From contig CAZDWB010000006.1 of the NCBI GenBank assembly GCA_964509225.1, positions 4,979-68,978 on the forward strand: 64,000 bases of DNA, given 5' to 3'. Source of the DNA: an uncultured Sangeribacter sp. GTDB lineage: Bacteria; Bacteroidota; Bacteroidia; Bacteroidales; Muribaculaceae. Position 1 is the first letter of the stretch, and every line of letters begins with the position of its first letter. Shown here piece by piece: positions 23,422 through 41,517 of the stretch. The notes beneath the pieces are model-generated. The model saw nothing but the letters and a program-made list of their open reading frames with translations. It did no database searches and was not told the DNA's origin. The translations under genes and the position numbers were made by a program.

Positions 23422-24108
23422 TCAATCTAAGTAAGGTTCAATAATCTTCATCCATACTTTATATCCGTTTCCATTCAGGTGCAATCCATCACCCGTAAGT
23501 TTCCGGTCAAGATTCCCTTTATAATCCTTCATGGCATCAGTCAAATCTATATAAACCGCCCCATTCTCCTCAGCAATCTTTTTTAACTGCTGGTTGAGCT
23601 GGGGAATCATACCCTCTCTTCCTTTAAGAGCCTTGTAGCGGTTAAAAGAGTTATTAACAGGCATTACTGACTGAATATAAAGTTTGGTATCAGGTGATTG
23701 GCGCCGGATATCAGCTACCAAAGCAGCATAACGTTCGGTGAGAGTCTTTAAGGAATGTCCGTGAGAAATATCGTTGATACCTATGAGAAGAAATATCTTC
23801 CGGGGGTGCCAGCGTGTCACCTGGTCGAGACGTTCCCTCACTCCGTCAATGACATCACTGCTGATTCCTCTGTTTTTAACATCACTACGATTAAGGAGTT
23901 CATGAAATTCACCACCATCTGTGATAGAATTCCCAAGGAAGACGATATCATCATTGTCTATAGGGAGAACCTCAAAAAGAGATGTACGCTGATTCCAATA
24001 ATCATAACGGGCCTGACAAATGTCAGTAGATAGGGACAGAGCGCAAACAGCAGAAATTAAACCTATTGCCATTGAGCCCCTGAAATTCAACTTTTTATAC
24101 AGTTTCAT
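23422..24108 (-). CDS. SGNH/GDSL-family hydrolase (exported)
   Basis: FLGNSIT, NRGISSD, LIGINDI and DGLHLN blocks; signal-peptide-like N-terminus. Confidence 0.88.
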   Translation of the reverse strand: MKLYKKLNFRGSMAIGLISAVCALSLSTDICQARYDYWNQRTSLFEVLPIDNDDIVFLGNSITDGGEFHELLNRSDVKNRGISSDVIDGVRERLDQVTRWHPRKIFLLIGINDISHGHSLKTLTERYAALVADIRRQSPDTKLYIQSVMPVNNSFNRYKALKGREGMIPQLNQQLKKIAEENGAVYIDLTDAMKDYKGNLDRKLTGDGLHLNGNGYKVWMKIIEPYLD

Positions 24109-24955
24109 AATTATGATAGGCTACCAATCCTTCCATGGGAGTTTTAACAACTTTATCGACACTATAACCCAGGTCGTTAGCGGCTTCCCTTAATATGTCT
24201 TCAAAGATAACTGCTATAGACCCGATAAAGCCCATTGGCAATGAGTGTGCGCCGGGATACATCGCGACATTTCTCTTGATGAAGGAAGTGAGTTCCTGAC
24301 GGACAAGAGAATAAATATAAGGATTCCAGATATTCTTTTTAATGAAGGGCACCAGTGAAGCCAAAAATTTGTTAGGGGCACTGGTGCGATATACCTTGTC
24401 GAGGATATCAGCAAGAGTCATGTTATATTCTTCCATAAACGCTTCGCGCACTATGCGTGGCAGATGTCCCTTAAAGGCGTCACTTACCAGTCTTTTCCCA
24501 AGAGCTGCGCCACTCCCTTCATCTCCCAGAATATACCCTAAAGATGGAACATTGACTTCAATATTCTCACCATCGTAGAGACAGGAATTACTACCGGTGC
24601 CAAGAATACAGGCGATTCCCCGTTTATTCCCAAATAAAGCGTGAGCCGCTCCGAGAAGGTCGGAATAAACTTTTACATTGTTGGAATCCCAGGCCTTGGA
24701 TATTATTTCAGTCATGCGCGTGTTTACACGGTCGGTTGCGCAGCCGGCACCATAATAATGAATTTCAGAATATTCGATTTCGGAGTCAAAGTTTTTACGA
24801 ACTTCTGCCATAAGATCAGCTATGTCCTCTGCCTCTGACAAGAGTGCATTAATCCCTTCCGAAGTATATTTACCTATAATTTTTCCATTTTCAGCGAGCA
24901 ATATCCAATCCACTTTCGTAGAACCGGCATCTGCTATTAATTTTGCTTTAATCAT
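24095..24955 (-). CDS. BadF/BadG/BcrA/BcrD-type ATPase (N-acetylglucosamine kinase-like)
   Basis: IADAGSTKVDW, FYYGAGC-like IHYYGAGC, ACILGTGSNS and GYILGDEGSGA motifs. Confidence 0.82.
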   Translation of the reverse strand: MIKAKLIADAGSTKVDWILLAENGKIIGKYTSEGINALLSEAEDIADLMAEVRKNFDSEIEYSEIHYYGAGCATDRVNTRMTEIISKAWDSNNVKVYSDLLGAAHALFGNKRGIACILGTGSNSCLYDGENIEVNVPSLGYILGDEGSGAALGKRLVSDAFKGHLPRIVREAFMEEYNMTLADILDKVYRTSAPNKFLASLVPFIKKNIWNPYIYSLVRQELTSFIKRNVAMYPGAHSLPMGFIGSIAVIFEDILREAANDLGYSVDKVVKTPMEGLVAYHNYETV

Positions 24956-25163: not shown

Positions 25164-25195
25164 GTTGTGTAGTTCGTAATTTTTATATACTTTTG
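25164..25195 (+). promoter_or_regulatory. Bacteroidetes promoter for the pyr operon
   Basis: GTTG at 25164-25167, 20-nt spacer, TACTTTTG at 25188-25195. Confidence 0.6.
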
Positions 25196-25213
25196 CACAA
25201 ATTGAATCCTACA

Positions 25214-25393
25214 ATGAATCTTCGACCGACACTTTTTTCAAAAATAAACGTGTCTTTTTCTCATGATTTGAGGAAAAACGGAGATTTTTCCCCTTTCTCC
25301 ACCGTATATTTTCATAGTTTATTTACAAAACAGGCAGCTCCGGCGAGTTGCCTGTTTTCATATTACTTAAATAATCATGAATTATTTGATTAA
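25214..25393 (+). CDS. Putative pyr leader peptide (59 aa)
   Basis: ATG shortly after the predicted TSS. The ORF runs through U/C tracts and the terminator hairpin and overlaps the pyrC start. Confidence 0.45.
   Translation: MNLRPTLFSKINVSFSHDLRKNGDFSPFSTVYFHSLFTKQAAPASCLFSYYLNNHELFD
25327..25362 (+). terminator. Terminator/attenuator hairpin upstream of pyrC
   Basis: AAAACAGGCAGCTC-cggc-GAGTTGCCTGTTTT: 14-bp stem with one G-U pair, ending in TTTTCATATT. Confidence 0.7.
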
Positions 25394-26729
25394 AAACGTT
25401 GTTATACGTAATTTGCCATTGAATGGAATTCCGAGATATGATGTCTTTATCTCTGATGGCAAAATTGTATCTATCACCAACGTAATCAATAATAAAGTTA
25501 ATCATGACACTCTAAATAATACCGTCATTATTGATGGAACTGGACTCTCACTTTTACCGGGGTTAGTAGATATGCATGTTCATTTCCGTCAACCCGGTTT
25601 TGAAGCAAAAGAAACAATTGCCACCGGAAGCAAAGCAGCGGCACACGGTGGATTTACAACCGTCTGCACAATGCCGAATCTCAACCCGGCTCCGGATTCA
25701 CCTGAAAATCTGGAAATTCAATCTGAAATAATCCGGAAAGAGAGTGTGATTAAAATCCTTCCTTACGCAACCATTACCCTCCAGCGGAAAGGTAAGAAAT
25801 GTGTGGAATTTTCAACCTTTTCAAAAGGGAGCATTGCAGGTTTTTCCGATGATGGGAGCGGCATTCAAAGCGAAGACGTGATGAAGGAAGCTCTCAGCAG
25901 GTGTGCGGAAAATAATTTTCTCCTTGCAGCCCATTGTGAAGTCAACGACCTTCTTAAAGGAGGATATATCCATGATGGTATCTATGCTGAAAAGCACCAA
26001 CATCGCGGTATATGCTCAGAAAGTGAATGGAGAGAAATAGAGCGCAATATCCGTCTGGCTGAAGAAACCGGAGCTCGATTACATATATGCCATATTTCTA
26101 CTGCTGAAAGTGTGGAACTCATTAGAGATGCAAAAAAGCGTGGAGTTAAGATAACATGTGAGACTGCGCCCCACTATCTGGTGTTTTGTGATGAAGATTT
26201 AAAAGAGGAAGGAAAATTTAAGATGAATCCCCCGATAAGATCCTTCAAAGATAAAGAAGCTTTGATAAAAGGGATTCAGGATGGTACAATTGATGTAATT
26301 GCCACAGATCACGCCCCCCACACAAAGGATGAGAAATCACGCGGACTTGAAAAAAGCGCAATGGGTGTTGCGGGGATTGAAGCTTCCCTCCCGGTGATTT
26401 ATACACATCTTGTAAAACCGGGAATCATTTCTTTCGGCAGGATGCTGGAATTGATGGCTGATAAAGGTCGGGAAATTCTGGGTATTGAAAACGATCTCAT
26501 CGGTGAACTTCACGAAGGCATCGATGCTTCTTTAACTCTCGTTGATTTCAATAAGGATTTTTCCATCCAACCGGAGGAATGGCTGAGCTTGGGGAAAAGC
26601 ACTCCCTTTGAGGGGATGAGGATGCAGGGTAAAGTATTGGCTACCTTCTATAAAGGCACTCCGGTATTTTATGAAATTCCGGAAACTATATTATCTTCAA
26701 AACAGGGGAATCATAAATCATGGAAATGA
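25377..26729 (+). CDS. pyrC: Dihydroorotase (type I, Firmicutes-like)
   Basis: PGLVDMHVHFRQPG, TMPNLNP, HICHIST, KMNPPIR and IATDHAPH motifs. Confidence 0.94.
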   Translation: MNYLIKNVVIRNLPLNGIPRYDVFISDGKIVSITNVINNKVNHDTLNNTVIIDGTGLSLLPGLVDMHVHFRQPGFEAKETIATGSKAAAHGGFTTVCTMPNLNPAPDSPENLEIQSEIIRKESVIKILPYATITLQRKGKKCVEFSTFSKGSIAGFSDDGSGIQSEDVMKEALSRCAENNFLLAAHCEVNDLLKGGYIHDGIYAEKHQHRGICSESEWREIERNIRLAEETGARLHICHISTAESVELIRDAKKRGVKITCETAPHYLVFCDEDLKEEGKFKMNPPIRSFKDKEALIKGIQDGTIDVIATDHAPHTKDEKSRGLEKSAMGVAGIEASLPVIYTHLVKPGIISFGRMLELMADKGREILGIENDLIGELHEGIDASLTLVDFNKDFSIQPEEWLSLGKSTPFEGMRMQGKVLATFYKGTPVFYEIPETILSSKQGNHKSWK

Positions 26730-27490
26730 ATCGAGATATATTATTGAAAATAAAGGAAAATACAAGGATAGCTCCCAAAACGATGAAAATGGTTTTGGAG
26801 GGAGATACTTGTCTTATCACCAATCCCGGACAATTTGTAAATTTACAACTGAAAGGAAAATATCTGCGACGCCCGATTTCGGTGGGAGAATTTGAAAGTG
26901 CCGAAAAAGGGATGCTCACACTCTTCTATGACATAGTAGGGGAGGGAACAGCTCAAATGGCAGAAATGAAAGAGGGGGAACAAATTCAAACCCTTATGGG
27001 GTTGGGAAATGGTTTTGATCTTGATGTTGAGAGCCGGTTCCCGGCTCTTATGGGTGGCGGAATTGGAGTAGCCCCACTTCTTGGATTGGGAAAAGAGTTG
27101 ATAGCACATGGGAAGAAACCTATAGCCTTTATTGGATTTAATACAAAGGAAGATGTGGTATTGGAAAGGGAACTGATTGAGGCCGGAATAGAAACAGTTG
27201 TGTGTACCGTGGACGGAAGTTATGGGTTCAAGGGGTTCGTTACGGACGGATTTAAAAATTTTGAGATTTCCAACCCGGACAAAATTGATTATTTTTATGC
27301 ATGTGGTCCAATGCCTATGCTCAAGGCTCTCTCTTTGGGTATGAAAATACCGGGAGAATTGAGCCTGGACGAAAGAATGGCATGTGGATTCGGGGTCTGC
27401 ATGTGTTGCAGCGTGATGACAAACGATGGTGCCAAAAGAATATGTAAAGATGGTCCTGTATTTAAAAAAGAGGAACTGACATGGAAATAA
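26720..27490 (+). CDS. pyrK: Dihydroorotate dehydrogenase electron transfer subunit
   Basis: LRRPIS, GGGIGVAP and ERMACGFGVCMCC 2Fe-2S motifs. Start 26720 or 26726 (ATGA overlap). Confidence 0.93.
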   Translation: MEMNRDILLKIKENTRIAPKTMKMVLEGDTCLITNPGQFVNLQLKGKYLRRPISVGEFESAEKGMLTLFYDIVGEGTAQMAEMKEGEQIQTLMGLGNGFDLDVESRFPALMGGGIGVAPLLGLGKELIAHGKKPIAFIGFNTKEDVVLERELIEAGIETVVCTVDGSYGFKGFVTDGFKNFEISNPDKIDYFYACGPMPMLKALSLGMKIPGELSLDERMACGFGVCMCCSVMTNDGAKRICKDGPVFKKEELTWK

Positions 27491-28404
27491 AAGAAAGCGG
27501 AAGAGTAGACCTTTCTGTAAAATTAGGAGATTTATTACTCACCAATCCTGTTATACCGGCAAGTGGTTGTTTCGGTTTCGGATATGGGATGAGTGATTAT
27601 TATGATGTAAATATTTTAGGCTCCATTTCACTTAAAGGTACAACACTACAGCCGAGATTCGGTAATCCCTTGCCACGTGTCGCAGAATGTGAGGGGGGAC
27701 TTATTAATTCCGTTGGGCTCCAAAACCCGGGAATCCACAAAGTAATCGAAGAAGAACTCCCGAAGGCAGCTATGGCTTTTAAGAAACCATTGATTGCCAA
27801 TATAAGTGGTTTCTCAATTGACGAATATCGTGAATGTTGCAGATTAATTGACACGCAGGAGTGTATCGGATTGATAGAATTGAATGTAAGCTGTCCGAAT
27901 GTTCATGGCGGAGGAATGAGTTTCGGAACTTCCATCGAAGATGTCACAAAAGTGGTAAAAGCTGTCAAAGGAGTTACTTCCAAACCATTATATGTTAAAT
28001 TAACACCGAATGTTACAGATATAGTAAGTATAGGGAAAGCTGCTGAAGATGCCGGAGCAGATGGATTGGTTGCTATCAATACCATGCTTGGAATGAGAAT
28101 TGATTTAAAATCCAGACGTCCCGTAATTGCCAATATAATGGGAGGTTTCTCAGGTCCTGCAATTTTCCCGGTGGCATTGAGAATCGTATATCAACTTGCC
28201 CATGCATGTAATATTCCGGTGATAGGATGCGGAGGAATCTCCACCGCCAAAGATGTACTTGAAATGATGATGGCTGGAGCATGTGCGATAGAAGTAGGAG
28301 CAGCCAATCTTCGGGATCCCTACGCTTGTAAGAAGATTATCGAGTCTCTTCCCGAAGAAATGGAGAAATTGGGTATCAACTCTCTTAGAAATCTTAAAAT
28401 ATAA
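27481..28404 (+). CDS. pyrD: Dihydroorotate dehydrogenase class 1B catalytic subunit
   Basis: NPVIPASG, INSVGLQNPG, ELNVSCPN, KLTPNV and GGFSGPAI motifs. Confidence 0.95.
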   Translation: MEIKESGRVDLSVKLGDLLLTNPVIPASGCFGFGYGMSDYYDVNILGSISLKGTTLQPRFGNPLPRVAECEGGLINSVGLQNPGIHKVIEEELPKAAMAFKKPLIANISGFSIDEYRECCRLIDTQECIGLIELNVSCPNVHGGGMSFGTSIEDVTKVVKAVKGVTSKPLYVKLTPNVTDIVSIGKAAEDAGADGLVAINTMLGMRIDLKSRRPVIANIMGGFSGPAIFPVALRIVYQLAHACNIPVIGCGGISTAKDVLEMMMAGACAIEVGAANLRDPYACKKIIESLPEEMEKLGINSLRNLKI

Positions 28405-28418
28405 CAATCTGTTAAATT

Positions 28419-29132
28419 ATGGAAGCAAATGCCAAAGATGTGATAATAGCTTGTGACTTCCCCACAGCTGAAGAAACATTGAAATTCTTAGATAAATTCA
28501 CCGTCAGGAAACCGTTCGTCAAAATTGGAATGGAACTCTATTATGGTGCAGGGAATGAAATAGTAAAGGAGATTAAGAGAAGAGGACATAAGATATTTCT
28601 GGACTTAAAACTCCATGATATTCCCAACACAGTGAAAAAGGCGATGAGGGTTCTTTCGGCATTGGATGTGGATATGGTCAATGTTCATGCTGCCGGCACA
28701 ATTGAGATGATGCGCGCTGCTCTGGATGGTCTCACAAGGGCAGATGGCTCCAGACCATTATTAATTGCTGTCACTCAACTTACTTCTACCTCCCAAGAAG
28801 CGATGCAAAATCAACTCATGATTTCCACAGATATAAATTCTACCATAATAAAATATGCGCAAAATGCAAAGGCAGCCGGTCTTGATGGTGTTGTCTGTTC
28901 TCCATTGGAGGCTGGATTGGTGAAAGAGTCATGTGGAAATGAATTTATGACTGTCACTCCCGGAATCAGATTTGCTGACTCGGGTAAGGATGACCAGGTA
29001 AGAATCACAACTCCCCTTAAAGCCAGGGAGATTGGATCAGATTACATTGTAGTTGGTCGACCTATTACTCAAGCTGAGGATCCGGTTGCGGCATACGAAA
29101 AGTGTTGTCGTCAATTTTTAAATGAGGAATAA
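28419..29132 (+). CDS. pyrF: Orotidine-5'-phosphate decarboxylase
   Basis: [33 protein letters not shown] and VVGRPIT motifs. Confidence 0.96.
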
Positions 29133-29157: not shown

Positions 29158-29805
29158 ATGAACTCAAATATATATACCCCTGAGAAAATAGCTGAGGAAT
29201 TACTTAAGATAAAGGCCGTGTTTCTAAGTCCGGACAAACCCTTCACATGGGCAAGTGGGATTAAAAGTCCCATTTATTGCGACAATCGTCTTATTCTCAC
29301 GTCTCCTGAGACGAGAGAAATAGTCGAGAAGGGTATATGCGAAACTATTAGAAAATTTTATCCGGAAGCAGAAGTTCTGATGGGGACCTCTACCGCCGGG
29401 ATTGCCCATGCAGCCATAGCAGGTTATCTGTTGAACCTTCCTATGGGTTATGTAAGAGGATCTGCGAAAGATCATGGTCGCAACAATCGTATTGAGGGAC
29501 GACTTGAGAAAGGTCAAAAGGTAGTTGTAGTAGAAGATCTTATCTCAACCGGTGGAAGCTGTATCGATGTTGTTGAAGCTCTAAGGGAAGCTGGAGCGGA
29601 AGTGCTCGGTGTAGTAAGCATTTTTACTTATGGCATGAAGAAAGGGCTTGAAAAACTGGAAAATGCAAACGTCGAAAATCATTCCCTTTCCAATTTCGAC
29701 ACCCTTGTAGAGGTTGCTGCCAAAGAGGGATATATCTTACCGGATGACGTAGAAAAACTCAGAAGATTTATGAGCAATCCTTCTGACGAATCTTGGATGA
29801 AATAA
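29158..29805 (+). CDS. pyrE: Orotate phosphoribosyltransferase
   Basis: [16 protein letters not shown] and [13 protein letters not shown] (PRPP motif). Confidence 0.96.
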
Positions 29806-29807
29806 AA

Positions 29808-30902
29808 ATGAGAAAAATGAGACATCTTATTGAGCCATACGATTTGACAAAAGAGGAAATAGAATCTATCGTAGACCTGGCATTAGACATCATAGATAAT
29901 CGAGAGAAATATTCGGAAGTATGCAAGGGAAAAAAACTTGCAACTCTGTTCTATGAACCGAGCACCCGGACTCGTCTCAGCTTTACCGCAGCAATGATGG
30001 AATTGGGTGGTAATGTTCTTGGCTTTTATGATGCTAAGAATTCATCAGTAAGTAAAGGAGAGACTGTTGCAGACACATCAAAAGTGATAAGTTGCTTCTC
30101 TGATATCATTGCAATGCGACATTATGAGGAAGGTGCAGCCCTCGTGGCAGCTATGAATGCAACAGTACCGGTTATAAATGCTGGTGATGGCAGTCATGCA
30201 CATCCCACACAGACACTTACAGATCTGCTCACAATCAAAAGAGAAATCGGCAGATTCAATAACATCACCATAGGTTTTTGCGGAGACCTAAAATTTGGTC
30301 GCACAGTCCACTCTCTTATTAAAGCCTTATCTCGCTATGAAGGTGTAAATGTCGTGTTGATTGCTCCGGAACAGCTCCGGCTCCCTGACTATATGAAGGA
30401 GGAAGTATGTGACGCAAATGGTGTTAAATATAAAGAAGTTACCTCCCTCGAAGAGGTGATTGGAGATCTGGATATCCTTTACATGACGCGGGTACAGAAA
30501 GAGCGTTTCCTTGACGAAGATGAATTTGACAGGTTAAAAGACAGTTTTATTTTGGACTCCGAGAAAATGAAACGTGCCCGAAAGGATATGCGTATTCTTC
30601 ATCCATTACCCAGAGTGAACGAGATAACGGTTGAAGTGGATGATGATCCCAGGGCTGCATATTTCCGTCAGGTAGAAAACGGTAAATTTGTAAGAATGTC
30701 ACTTATTCTCACCCTTTTAAATTGGGCAAAAGAAGATAAATACAACACCAAGCTATTAGGGGAAGGAATTGTGTATAATAAATATCATTGTCACAATAAG
30801 CGGTGCATATCCAATATGGAAAATGTTCCTACAATGTTCCGGAAATCCACAGATGGCTCAGACAAAATGCGTTGTGTTTATTGCGAATCTCGCCCTGAGT
30901 AA
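29808..30902 (+). CDS. pyrB: Aspartate carbamoyltransferase catalytic chain with fused C-terminal PyrI-like zinc domain
   Basis: [20 protein letters not shown] and LHPLPR motifs; C-terminal extension CHNKRC...RCVYCE. Confidence 0.94.
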
Positions 30903-30997: not shown

Positions 30998-31029
30998 TTT
31001 GTGAGTGACAATAAAAATCGGTAAATTTG
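30998..31029 (+). promoter_or_regulatory. Bacteroidetes promoter for the pur operon
   Basis: TTTG at 30998-31001, 20-nt spacer, TAAATTTG at 31022-31029. Confidence 0.72.
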
Positions 31030-31063
31030 CAGTGGATATTGATAGCCGAAAGGAAGCATAATT

Positions 31064-31201
31064 ATGAGGCAACCCCGAAACATATCCCGCAATAACAGTT
31101 TTGCCGGTCCGAAGCCGGGAGAAAAAAAGTTGTGTGTGCGTGTGCGCAGCAAAAAATTAAGACATCAAATAAAAATAAATCAAATCGACAACCGCCTGTA
31201 A
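31064..31201 (+). CDS. Putative pur leader peptide (45 aa: MRQPRNISRNNSFAGPKPGEKKLCVRVRSKKLRHQIKINQIDNRL)
   Basis: Hand translation. AAGGAAG lies just upstream of the ATG, and the stop codon falls inside the terminator hairpin. Below the ORF-track size cut-off. Confidence 0.5.
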   Translation: MRQPRNISRNNSFAGPKPGEKKLCVRVRSKKLRHQIKINQIDNRL

Positions 31202-31233
31202 GAGGGAATCCTCGGGCGGTTGTCGGTTTTTTT
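31184..31233 (+). terminator. Intrinsic terminator/attenuator upstream of purE
   Basis: CGACAACCGCCTG...CGGGCGGTTGTCG long GC-rich stem, inner GAGG-gaat-CCTC, followed by T7 (31227-31233). Confidence 0.85.
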
Positions 31234-31252
31234 AACCATAAGTTTTTTAGAT

Positions 31253-39393: not shown

Positions 39394-41517
39394 ATGAAAT
39401 TAACAGATAATAAAGTTTTGGTTATAGGATCAGGTGGTCGTTGTCACGCCATAGTGGATTCTCTTAACCGCTCGTCAAGAGTAGGAAAAATATATTGTGC
39501 TCCCGGAAATGCAGGAATAGCCATGCAGGCTGAATGTGTGCCTATAGGAGTTGAGAATATATCCGAACTGGCTGATTTTGCGAAAAAAAATGAAATAGAC
39601 CTGACGATAGTTGGACCTGAAGCGGCATTAGCAGCAGGTATAGCTGATGAGTTTGAACGAAGGGGTCTAATGATCTTTGGTCCGTCAAAATCCGCAACCC
39701 GCATAGAAAGCAGTAAGGAATTTGCTAAACGTCTGATGATGAAATATGATATACCGACAGGTAAATATCAATCATTTTCAGATTATGACGAAGCCTGGGA
39801 ATATGTTCAGAGTCGTCCTTTACCGGCAGTAATCAAATATGATGGTTTGGCGGCAGGAAAGGGTGTTACCGTTGCAAGTACATATAAAGAGGCGGAAAAA
39901 GCCCTGCGTTCTATGCTGAAAGATGAAACTTTCGGTCATGATAAAGTGATTGTTGAAGAGTATCTGGAAGGTCCGGAGTTCTCTTTGATGTGTTTGGTTA
40001 ACGGGGACAAGATTTATCCCCTCGCAACTGCTCAAGACCATAAACGTGCCTTCGATGGTGACCGTGGTCCCAATACAGGAGGAATGGGAGCCTATTCCCC
40101 TGTGGCGTTTGTCACCGAGGAAGTTCATAAAGATGCTATCGAACGGATAATGCAAAAGGCTGCTTCCGCCATGGTCCGTGAGGGTGTCCCTTTCAAGGGT
40201 ATTTTGTATGGAGGTTTAATTCTCACAGAACAAGGTCCTAAAGTCATTGAATTTAATGCGCGTTTCGGTGACCCGGAAACAGAAGTTGTGCTTCCTCGGA
40301 TGGAATCTGATATTTTAGACCTTTTGGAATCGGTAATAGAGAGCAAGGACTATGAGATAAAATGGTCTGACAAGGCTTGTCTCGGGATTGTTTTGGCTTC
40401 AGAGGGTTATCCTGGCAGCTATGAAAAAGGTATTGAAATAAGACTCCCTAATAATCACGACTCCCTAATCTATCACATGGGTACAGCCATAAAGGACGGA
40501 GAATTAGTGACTGCCGGAGGACGTGTGATGATGACTGTGGGACTTGCGCCAAATTTGGAAATGGCTCGTGATATAGCTTTGTCTGATGCCAAGGAAGTTA
40601 AATGCAGTTCTCTATTTTTCAGAACGGATATAGGAAAAGCGGTTCTGGGGAGCAGTCTGAATAAGGTAATTATCAGTGGAACCGAGATTGCCAGGAAAAT
40701 TAAAGATAGTTTAAAGGAGGAGACAGCTTCATTGAAAGAAGCAACCGGGAAGGTCCCTCATCTGGCAGTTGTACTGGTCGGGAATGATCCTGCGAGTGCG
40801 AATTATGTCTCCACAAAAGGTAAAACAAGCCTTCAGTTGGGATATAAACACACTGCAGTGCATTTCCCGGAAAACGTCAGTGAAGAGGAATTGATCACAA
40901 AAATCACTGAGATGAATGCCGATGAAGATATTAATGGCATTTTGGTGCAACTGCCTTTACCGAGACATATCAATAAAAACAGAGTTCTAAGGACCATAAG
41001 TCCTGAAAAGGATGTTGATGCGTTTCATCCAACGAATATTTCCTCTCTTTGGCTAAAGACCGAAGGGATTCTACCTTGCACTCCCAAAGGGATAATTCGG
41101 ATGCTCGATGAGGGGGGAATACCGATAGACGGAAGTCATGCAGTTGTGATAGGTAGGAGCAATATCGTGGGGTTCCCTGTGGCAAAAATGCTTCTGGATA
41201 GAAATGCAACGGTAACTGTAGCTCATAGTCACACACGAAATCTTGCATCTATTACCCGCGAAGCTGACATTTTAGTTGTAGCCATTGGTAAAGCCAAAAT
41301 GATTACTGCTGATATGGTAAAACCTGGTGCTGCAGTTATTGATGTCGGTATTAATCAAGACACAGAAACCGGTAGAATGTGTGGGGATGTAGATTTCGAA
41401 GCTATGAAAGAGAAGGTTTCTATTATAACCCCGGTGCCCGGAGGTGTGGGACCGATGACAATAGCATGTCTTATGGAAAACACGATGGAATGTTTCCGTA
41501 AACAGAATGGATTATAA
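39394..41517 (+). CDS. purD: Fusion of phosphoribosylamine-glycine ligase (PurD) and methylene-THF dehydrogenase/cyclohydrolase (FolD)
   Basis: About aa 1-420 carry PurD motifs (GSGGR, GLAAGKGV, PNTGGMGAY, EFNARFGDPE, FRTDIG). The remainder carries FolD motifs (KDVDAFHP, PCTPKG, GRSNIVG, TPVPGGVGPMTIACL). One unbroken frame. Confidence 0.93.
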   Translation: MKLTDNKVLVIGSGGRCHAIVDSLNRSSRVGKIYCAPGNAGIAMQAECVPIGVENISELADFAKKNEIDLTIVGPEAALAAGIADEFERRGLMIFGPSKSATRIESSKEFAKRLMMKYDIPTGKYQSFSDYDEAWEYVQSRPLPAVIKYDGLAAGKGVTVASTYKEAEKALRSMLKDETFGHDKVIVEEYLEGPEFSLMCLVNGDKIYPLATAQDHKRAFDGDRGPNTGGMGAYSPVAFVTEEVHKDAIERIMQKAASAMVREGVPFKGILYGGLILTEQGPKVIEFNARFGDPETEVVLPRMESDILDLLESVIESKDYEIKWSDKACLGIVLASEGYPGSYEKGIEIRLPNNHDSLIYHMGTAIKDGELVTAGGRVMMTVGLAPNLEMARDIALSDAKEVKCSSLFFRTDIGKAVLGSSLNKVIISGTEIARKIKDSLKEETASLKEATGKVPHLAVVLVGNDPASANYVSTKGKTSLQLGYKHTAVHFPENVSEEELITKITEMNADEDINGILVQLPLPRHINKNRVLRTISPEKDVDAFHPTNISSLWLKTEGILPCTPKGIIRMLDEGGIPIDGSHAVVIGRSNIVGFPVAKMLLDRNATVTVAHSHTRNLASITREADILVVAIGKAKMITADMVKPGAAVIDVGINQDTETGRMCGDVDFEAMKEKVSIITPVPGGVGPMTIACLMENTMECFRKQNGL

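Follow-up and report, generated by a model that had tools for sequence, protein, structure and literature searches.

The 5' leader of the pyrC-pyrK-pyrD-pyrF-pyrE-pyrB mRNA (25196-25376) in the genome of a Bacteroidales bacterium from gut or rumen probably acts as a translation-coupled, UTP-sensitive transcription attenuator that works without a repressor, analogous but not homologous to the attenuators of pyrBI and pyrE. Positions refer to the window, i.e., the whole stretch of 64,000 nucleotides that we analyzed (contig C6:4979-68978), which comes from a metagenome-assembled genome of 2.15 Mb that is 92.7% complete. By analogy with those systems, transcription would begin a few bases 3' of a -7 promoter box, and a ribosome would load at a nearly leaderless AUG (25214) and translate a short leader ORF whose amino-acid sequence would be irrelevant, while RNA polymerase copies several U-tracts ahead of an intrinsic terminator (25327-25358). 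With ample UTP, the polymerase would outrun the ribosome, letting the terminator hairpin form and ending transcription short of pyrC. With scarce UTP, the polymerase would stall in the U-tracts and the ribosome would catch up, covering or melting the emerging 5' arm of the hairpin, and the polymerase would read into the operon. The features of the leader and of the operon are as follows.

25165-25167, + strand: TTG, a weak -33-like element (from sequence)
25188-25195, + strand: -7 promoter box TACTTTTG of the Bacteroidetes type, consensus TAnnTTTG (from sequence)
25214-25393, + strand: leader ORF of 59 codons, with ATG at 25214 and stop codon TAA at 25391-25393; predicted peptide MNLRPTLFSKINVSFSHDLRKNGDFSPFSTVYFHSLFTKQAAPASCLFSYYLNNHELFD
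25233-25238 and 25255-25259, + strand: early U-tracts T6 and T5, within the ORF (from sequence)
25272-25278 with 25285-25291, + strand: hairpin 1, GGAAAAA/TTTTTCC, whose loop opens with the box AAAACGGA
25285-25300, + strand: pure pyrimidine run of 16 nt, with equal numbers of C and U (from sequence)
25285-25326, + strand: pyrimidine/U-rich stretch, the candidate UTP-sensitive pause region, made up of the pyrimidine run, a T4 and two TTT
25309-25312, 25318-25320 and 25322-25324, + strand: the T4 and the two TTT, respectively, between the pyrimidine run and the terminator
25327-25362, + strand: intrinsic terminator (attenuator), with hairpin AAAACAGGCAGCTC-CGGC-GAGTTGCCTGTTTT at 25327-25358, followed by CATATT, of which the CATA lies within the range given (predicted fold)
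25367-25389, + strand: weak A/U hairpin TTAAATAAT-CATGA-ATTATTTGA, with the pyrC AUG in its loop
25377-30902, + strand: pyr operon, putatively controlled by the leader (Pfam and NCBIfam)
25377-26729, + strand: pyrC (Pfam/NCBIfam)
26720-27490, + strand: pyrK (Pfam/NCBIfam)
27481-28404, + strand: pyrD (Pfam/NCBIfam)
28419-29132, + strand: pyrF (Pfam/NCBIfam)
29158-29805, + strand: pyrE (Pfam/NCBIfam)
29793-30902, + strand: pyrB fused to a PyrI C-terminal domain (Pfam/NCBIfam)

The gene 5' of the leader (24095-24955), which encodes a BadF/BcrAD-type ATPase, is divergent, and thus the 421-nt gap holds the control region of the pyr operon. An independent Logan assembly, SRR9130365, carries the same 301 nt with no differences, so the leader is no assembly artifact. 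Strain variants were sought by an exact 20-mer scan of metagenome contigs, which returned 19 chance matches and 0 related sequences, and an exact-protein look-up returned 1 identical contig only, leaving no strain variation to use. A long purine/guanine/carAB cluster lies 3' of the operon, and together they form a 28-kb nucleotide supercluster (25377-53491) lying entirely on one strand, in the order pyrC-K-D-F-E-B, purE-L-C-M-N-H, purD/folD, purB, purA, guaB, guaA, a purF-like gene, carA, and carB. The purF-like gene is long (628 aa) and scores under the purF cut-off; many relatives have the alternative order purF-like gene, carA, carB, pyrC, the purF-like gene in relatives being assigned from C-terminal sequence. 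Two gene fusions occur in the supercluster: a PurD-FolD fusion of 707 aa in the purine cluster (39394-41517; PurD at residues 7-417 and FolD at residues 425-705), and the 369-aa PyrB, which carries a C-terminal PyrI_C metal-binding domain at residues 327-366. The catalytic chain is thus joined to part of the regulatory chain, and a separate pyrI is absent from the operon.

A sequence check placed every leader feature named in the original prediction (the ORF, T6, T5, a small hairpin, the pyrimidine run, the terminator, and the overlap with pyrC) at the positions listed above. Based on the general geometry of Bacteroides promoters, transcription would start at ~25200-25203; this start region (CACAAATTGAATCC) has TT only and lacks an AATTTG-like run of at least three T. 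The leader ATG lies 26 nt from the first base of the -7 box, and the ORF spans the terminator and overlaps pyrC (ATG at 25377) by 17 nt. A frame running from a promoter-proximal ATG to the terminator arose in just 4% of dinucleotide shuffles of the window leader. The terminator hairpin (25327-25358) has 14 bp, a CGGC loop, and a G+C core of 10 bp, with 4 of the 14 pairs being A-U pairs that use the hairpin's own T4 tail. Its predicted energy is -21.1 kcal/mol (z = -5.8; 0 of 200 shuffles as stable), the entire leader has z = -4.7, and 18 nt separate the terminator from pyrC. Hairpin 1 is present as originally described, but at -5.0 kcal/mol (z = -0.2; equaled in 84 of 200 shuffles), it is by itself no better than chance. 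It may be a candidate pause hairpin, the counterpart of the ACGGAA/TTCCGT hairpin in the type A/A' leaders described below. The A/U hairpin around the pyrC AUG is likewise weak, with a predicted energy of -3.6 kcal/mol and a z of -1.6, and 14 of 200 shuffles equaled it. The stop of the leader ORF is 14 nt 3' of that AUG, an arrangement in which, speculatively, translational coupling or re-initiation could tie pyrC translation to the leader ribosomes. Moreover, the window version is atypical in having only a T4 within 30 nt of the terminator, a four-U terminator tail, and a nonsignificant hairpin 1. Taken alone, the window leader is therefore weak proof of attenuation, and it is the comparison with related leaders that makes for a strong sequence-based case.

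When the window leader was used as a BLAST query on 200 genus genomes, 0 homologues came up. As these leaders diverge too fast for BLAST, we retrieved the regions upstream of pyrC via a protein anchor from 116 genomes of the same genus and from 12 genomes of other Bacteroidales. Of the 116 loci from the genus, 49 carry the full set of -7 box, leader, and terminator immediately 5' of pyrC, 42 are operon-internal (mostly after carB), 22 are otherwise arranged, and 3 were too short for judging. We then compared 57 leaders, 49 of them same-genus, that had been picked by promoter box and terminator, ignoring ORFs. The TAnnTTTG box stands at the head of all 57, and in 56 of them an ATG-initiated ORF has its stop either past the terminator foot or at most 18 nt short of it. 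The pyrC leader of a cultured strain, Alistipes muris DSM 112343 (locus L117), shows this layout too. The discriminating form of the ORF test demands an ATG no more than 31 nt from the start of the box, i.e., a leaderless transcript or a very short 5' UTR; in this form, the frame reached the terminator in 47 of the 57 leaders, compared with 9.1 expected from dinucleotide shuffles. Common ancestry was discounted by single-linkage clustering at 66% identity, and 15 of the resulting 24 clusters retained the feature versus 2.6 expected (P < 5e-6 by simulation). As a control on real sequence, we took 21 other promoter-leader-terminator-gene sites of this genome, of which only 3 possess it. The comparison across relatives, which had been put forward as a check on the original prediction, thus bears out its ORF-to-terminator layout.

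In the type A family, the frame remains open to or through the terminator despite frame-shifting indels. Third codon positions were no more variable than first or second positions in both leader families, so that the open frame brings no independent sign of translation. On this comparison of sequences, the leader frame seems to be kept open while the peptide is not conserved as a protein. Likewise, the peptide sequence of the E. coli pyrBI leader is not known to be conserved. The stop codons fall at -19 to -3 relative to the terminator foot, within the hairpin, or past it, and in many relatives they lie 3-16 nt ahead of the foot. This range matches that over which ribosomes suppress termination in E. 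coli, where a ribosome stopping ~5 bp before a terminator lowers termination from ~90% to <10% and the effect is lost beyond ~27 nt (PMC4824070).

The same leaders bear on whether the element regulates pyrC at all. A constitutive partial terminator or insulator, or a small RNA gene consisting of a promoter, ~160 nt, and a terminator, with an ORF that arose by chance, could produce the anatomy seen in the window. The window leader does show a weak, sub-threshold likeness to the Bacteroides small RNA family BTnc231 (21.5 bits versus a gathering score of 80.4). We rejected this identity, since the score stems from the terminator and is equaled or exceeded, still below threshold, at unrelated sites of the genome, and BTnc231 is an intergenic small RNA unrelated to pyr genes (PMC7366714). 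In addition, the upstream gene is divergent, leaving nothing for the hairpin to terminate, and the architecture is kept before pyrC and carA despite highly divergent sequences. A -7 box is missing from all 57 terminator-pyrC spacers (median, 49 nt), so pyrC transcription must pass through the terminator. We thus regard a nonregulatory element as very unlikely. One side observation concerns locus L219 (genome G202, second pyrC copy), in which a tRNA-Cys(GCA) lies on the same strand (440-513) between the promoter box and the U-tract plus terminator; the attenuator-like terminator 5' of this pyrC also ends the tRNA transcript.

The candidate basis for a UTP signal is the sequence just ahead of the terminator. 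Of the 57 leaders, 25 have a run of T5 or longer no farther than 30 nt upstream of the terminator, against an expectation of 1.4; the corresponding count for clusters is 10 of 24, against 0.94. The run usually lies at -15 to -18, counted from the foot of the terminator, where the T frequency reaches 0.50 compared with 0.2-0.3 elsewhere in the leader. The early T6 and T5 of the window, listed originally among the leader features, do not keep their position among relatives; what is conserved is a U-tract just before the terminator, which is weak in the window itself. More specifically, the 35 nt ahead of the window terminator are 43% T, but the longest T-run within 30 nt is the T4 (at -22), a run that 26% of shuffles are expected to have, and the longer runs (T6, T5, T5) lie farther upstream.

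These data also bear on a ribosome-dependent attenuator without specific UTP sensing, which would respond to translation capacity or coupling (growth rate, stringent response) or to another nucleotide such as CTP, the U-tracts being incidental or generic pauses. The ORF-terminator geometry is indeed the most robust feature that we found, and it is common to the neighboring pur leader and to the type B leaders, a large same-genus family in which the upstream U-tract is absent, so that UTP-dependent pausing is not the whole story for all leaders. The weak terminator-adjacent U-tract of the window and the equal C and U content of its 16-nt pyrimidine run point the same way. In contrast, such a sensor leaves the enrichment of T5-6 runs at a fixed distance unaccounted for, the target genes are pyrimidine-specific (carAB included), and a generic sensor of coupling would not be expected specifically on nucleotide operons. 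For these reasons we judge it unlikely that UTP plays no specific part. Attenuation of the pyrBI/pyrE type, as originally proposed, is supported by the enrichment of ORF and U-tract in relatives and by the lack of a conserved antiterminator, but CTP sensing, the other half of the proposal, found no support.

The type B leaders (L010, L014, L015, L017, L019, L166, L174, L182-L184, L196, L198, L214, and L215) have an ORF of 15-18 codons, mostly 17 (e.g., MKPTMQYIERKHMAYVL), that is probably leaderless. They also contain a 4-bp mini-hairpin with a compensatory change (GGCA/TGCC versus AGCA/TGCT), and their ORF stops 7 nt short of a CACGCACCCC...GGGGATGCGTG terminator that is followed by T6-8.

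In the type A/A' leaders, the ATG lies ~25 nt past the start of the box, and a T5-6 run is present, as is a terminator of the form GGCAAYTC...GARTTGCC. A hairpin stands 44-47 nt ahead of this terminator, with an invariant AAAACGGA at its 5' arm. The window leader shares AAAACGGA in the same frame (Asn-Gly) and a terminator GGCAGCTC..GAGTTGCC of the pattern GGCAnCTC...GAGTTGCC. In an alignment of 19 sequences (type A/A' plus window), AACGGA, encoding Asn-Gly in frame, is invariant or nearly so, and the rest is divergent. A covariance model of type A/A', built without the window, returned the window leader as its top match in the 64 kb, end to end (25213-25360), at a nonsignificant 16.2 bits (E = 0.27). 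Homology of the window leader to the type A/A' family is thus no more than plausible. The same model matched 16 of 81 genus genomes, each with a single copy, which lies before pyrC in 14 and before carA-carB in 2, so the element is tied to pyrimidine/carbamoyl-phosphate genes and not to one gene. The two carA-carB cases (L236, 1490-1640, and L237; genomes G072 and G123, of two species) have the type A leader 3' of pyrC and 5' of carA-carB, with the L236 leader ORF stopping at TTTTTTTGA, ~10 nt before the terminator. Across 18 genomes in which pyrC follows carB, a terminator scan flagged 0 leaders upstream of carA; in most of them, another gene immediately precedes carA, the operon extending farther upstream.

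A simple pause hairpin would not need conservation as strong as that of the AAAACGGA box, which leaves room for a sequence-specific factor. In such a reading, an RNA-binding protein in place of PyrR, or a small ligand, would act on AAAACGGA and hairpin 1, with the ORF being secondary. Besides the near-invariance of AACGGA amid divergence elsewhere, the fixed distance of 44-47 nt between hairpin 1 and terminator in the family would suit such a factor, and in Clostridia the homologous operons have PyrR in this role. Several results speak against it. RNAalifold applied to the 19-sequence alignment recovered the terminator as the sole conserved structure (4 pairs with compensatory changes), with no conserved antiterminator or anti-antiterminator pairing. 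In 19 diverse leaders, the 70 nt 5' of the terminators were no more stable than shuffles, giving no indication of an aptamer-like structure. No Rfam family matched at the gathering score in the whole window, and none matched in 20 related Bacteroidales leaders. Moreover, the box is missing from many other leader types that have only the ORF, the terminator, and often the U-tract, and retention of the ORF would be left without explanation. A trans-acting factor as the principal regulator therefore appears quite unlikely to us, and we retain the ribosome as the proposed antiterminator.

PyrR itself is absent. The best pyrR score in this genome (NCBIfam NF003549) was 22 bits against a cut-off of 138, and the gene was found in none of the 61 genus genomes with a completeness of 90% or more, although the model matched Bacillus, Lactococcus, and other controls. 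The window leader contained no PyrR binding loop (RF00515), either at the gathering score or at E values up to 10. These results agree with the original statement that no such loop is evident and that the operon has no pyrR, and a PyrR or riboswitch mechanism, set out beforehand as the alternative to look for, was not encountered by gene model, Rfam, or RNAalifold. The leader peptides of the window and of two full relatives gave 0 Pfam matches at E values up to 10, and thus none to PF08052, which we take to be the enterobacterial PyrL leader peptide.

With respect to origin, the window PyrC shares 52-64% identity with same-genus PyrC, about 45-55% with PyrC from many Clostridia, and about 31-34% with PyrC of other Bacteroidales families; the same pyrC type occurs in MAGs labeled Rikenellaceae, Alistipes, Paludibacteraceae, and Aphodosoma. 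As it is closer to Clostridia than to other Bacteroidales families, the earlier description of a Firmicutes-like operon in a Bacteroidetes host is reasonable for pyrC. Many Clostridial pyrC loci (L055, L060, L065, L071, L073, L076, L080, L096, L108, L112, and L116) carry a motif AUCUUUAA..CGAUACAGAGAUAUCGGCAAGAU just 5' of pyrC, accompanied by a terminator; the 5' arm of this terminator can pair with the motif (CGGCAAG). At two Clostridial loci, the Rfam PyrR-site model scored 47.3 bits (E = 0.0015) versus a gathering score of 54, and the motif appears to be a PyrR-site variant just under that score.

The pur operon of the window has a leader of the same design (31017-31237). Its -7 box, TAAATTTG, is at 31017, its ORF of 45 codons (31064-31201) ends in the terminator loop, and its strong terminator (about 31188-31230) is followed by T7 and preceded by 35 nt that are 69% A. 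Among 29 same-genus purE loci examined, 14 leaders had box and terminator, and in all 14 the ORF extended to the terminator; their A-richness ranged from 0.14 to 0.54, and GTGTG-type runs were recurrent. The opposite base bias of the pur leader, cited originally in support of both interpretations, accordingly exists in the window and only variably in relatives. A broader and more tentative idea, in our estimate unlikely as a whole, is that the nucleotide supercluster (pyr, carAB, pur) of this lineage, and probably of others, is governed by one undescribed set of attenuators exerting "repression without repressors". Such a set would combine leaderless or near-leaderless mini-ORFs, NTP-dependent pausing, and the invariant AAAACGGA plus hairpin 1 module 44-47 nt from the terminator as a dedicated pause or factor signal, and it would have replaced PyrR control after the operon was gained from a Clostridia-like donor. 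If true, it would suit a phylum without Shine-Dalgarno initiation.

Our literature search found no description of pyr attenuation in Bacteroidota. Four known systems offer themselves for comparison. PyrR attenuation in Bacillus and Clostridia (RF00515) likewise places a terminator in the pyr leader of the same gene family, but it relies on PyrR, a binding loop, and antiterminator/anti-antiterminator pairing, none of which was found for the present leader or, in the case of pyrR, in this genome and the 61 genus genomes. As in the trp, his, and leu leader-peptide attenuators, among which we place the Bacteroid-trp motif (RF01692; we take it to be a predicted leader-peptide attenuator), a translated leader would govern a downstream terminator. 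Those attenuators sense charged tRNA via runs of regulatory codons and alternative hairpins, whereas the pyr leader has neither codon runs nor alternative hairpins, and the proposed signal is polymerase speed. The Bacteroid-trp motif has been listed in Bacteroidetes (PMC2864571).

The closest parallels are the pyrBI leader of E. coli and Salmonella (PyrL) and the rph-pyrE leader of E. coli. Like pyrBI, the present leader has a promoter-proximal ORF running through an intrinsic terminator just before the first structural gene, U-rich tracts 5' of that terminator, and a pyrimidine operon as its target, with no antiterminator RNA and no regulatory protein. It differs in having no sequence homology (no Pfam PyrL match), in belonging to another phylum, in preceding pyrC instead of pyrB, in its Bacteroidetes-style promoter and near-leaderless initiation without a Shine-Dalgarno sequence, and in lacking an AATTTG-type start for reiterative transcription; UTP dependence would here rest on the U-tracts by analogy. 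As in rph-pyrE, the ORF of many relatives ends a few nucleotides before the terminator, where a ribosome at the stop codon would occlude the hairpin. Unlike rph-pyrE, in which the upstream ORF is a real gene, rph, these leaders have a dedicated mini-ORF of 15-70 codons, and that of the window runs through the terminator instead of ending ahead of it.

The attenuators of pyrBI and rph-pyrE are textbook mechanisms; the kind of mechanism proposed here is therefore familiar, and the finding extends knowledge rather than overturning it. Our comparison suggests that the pyrBI/pyrE solution, in which the ribosome serves as the antiterminator and polymerase speed as the readout of UTP, arose independently in a phylum with other promoters and no Shine-Dalgarno initiation, and that the attenuator seems to have taken the place of PyrR on an operon most closely related to those of Clostridia. 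It thereby offers a handle on transcription-translation coupling in Bacteroidota and on pyrimidine homeostasis in abundant gut and rumen anaerobes, as well as a possible compact, pyrimidine-responsive control element for Bacteroides genetics.
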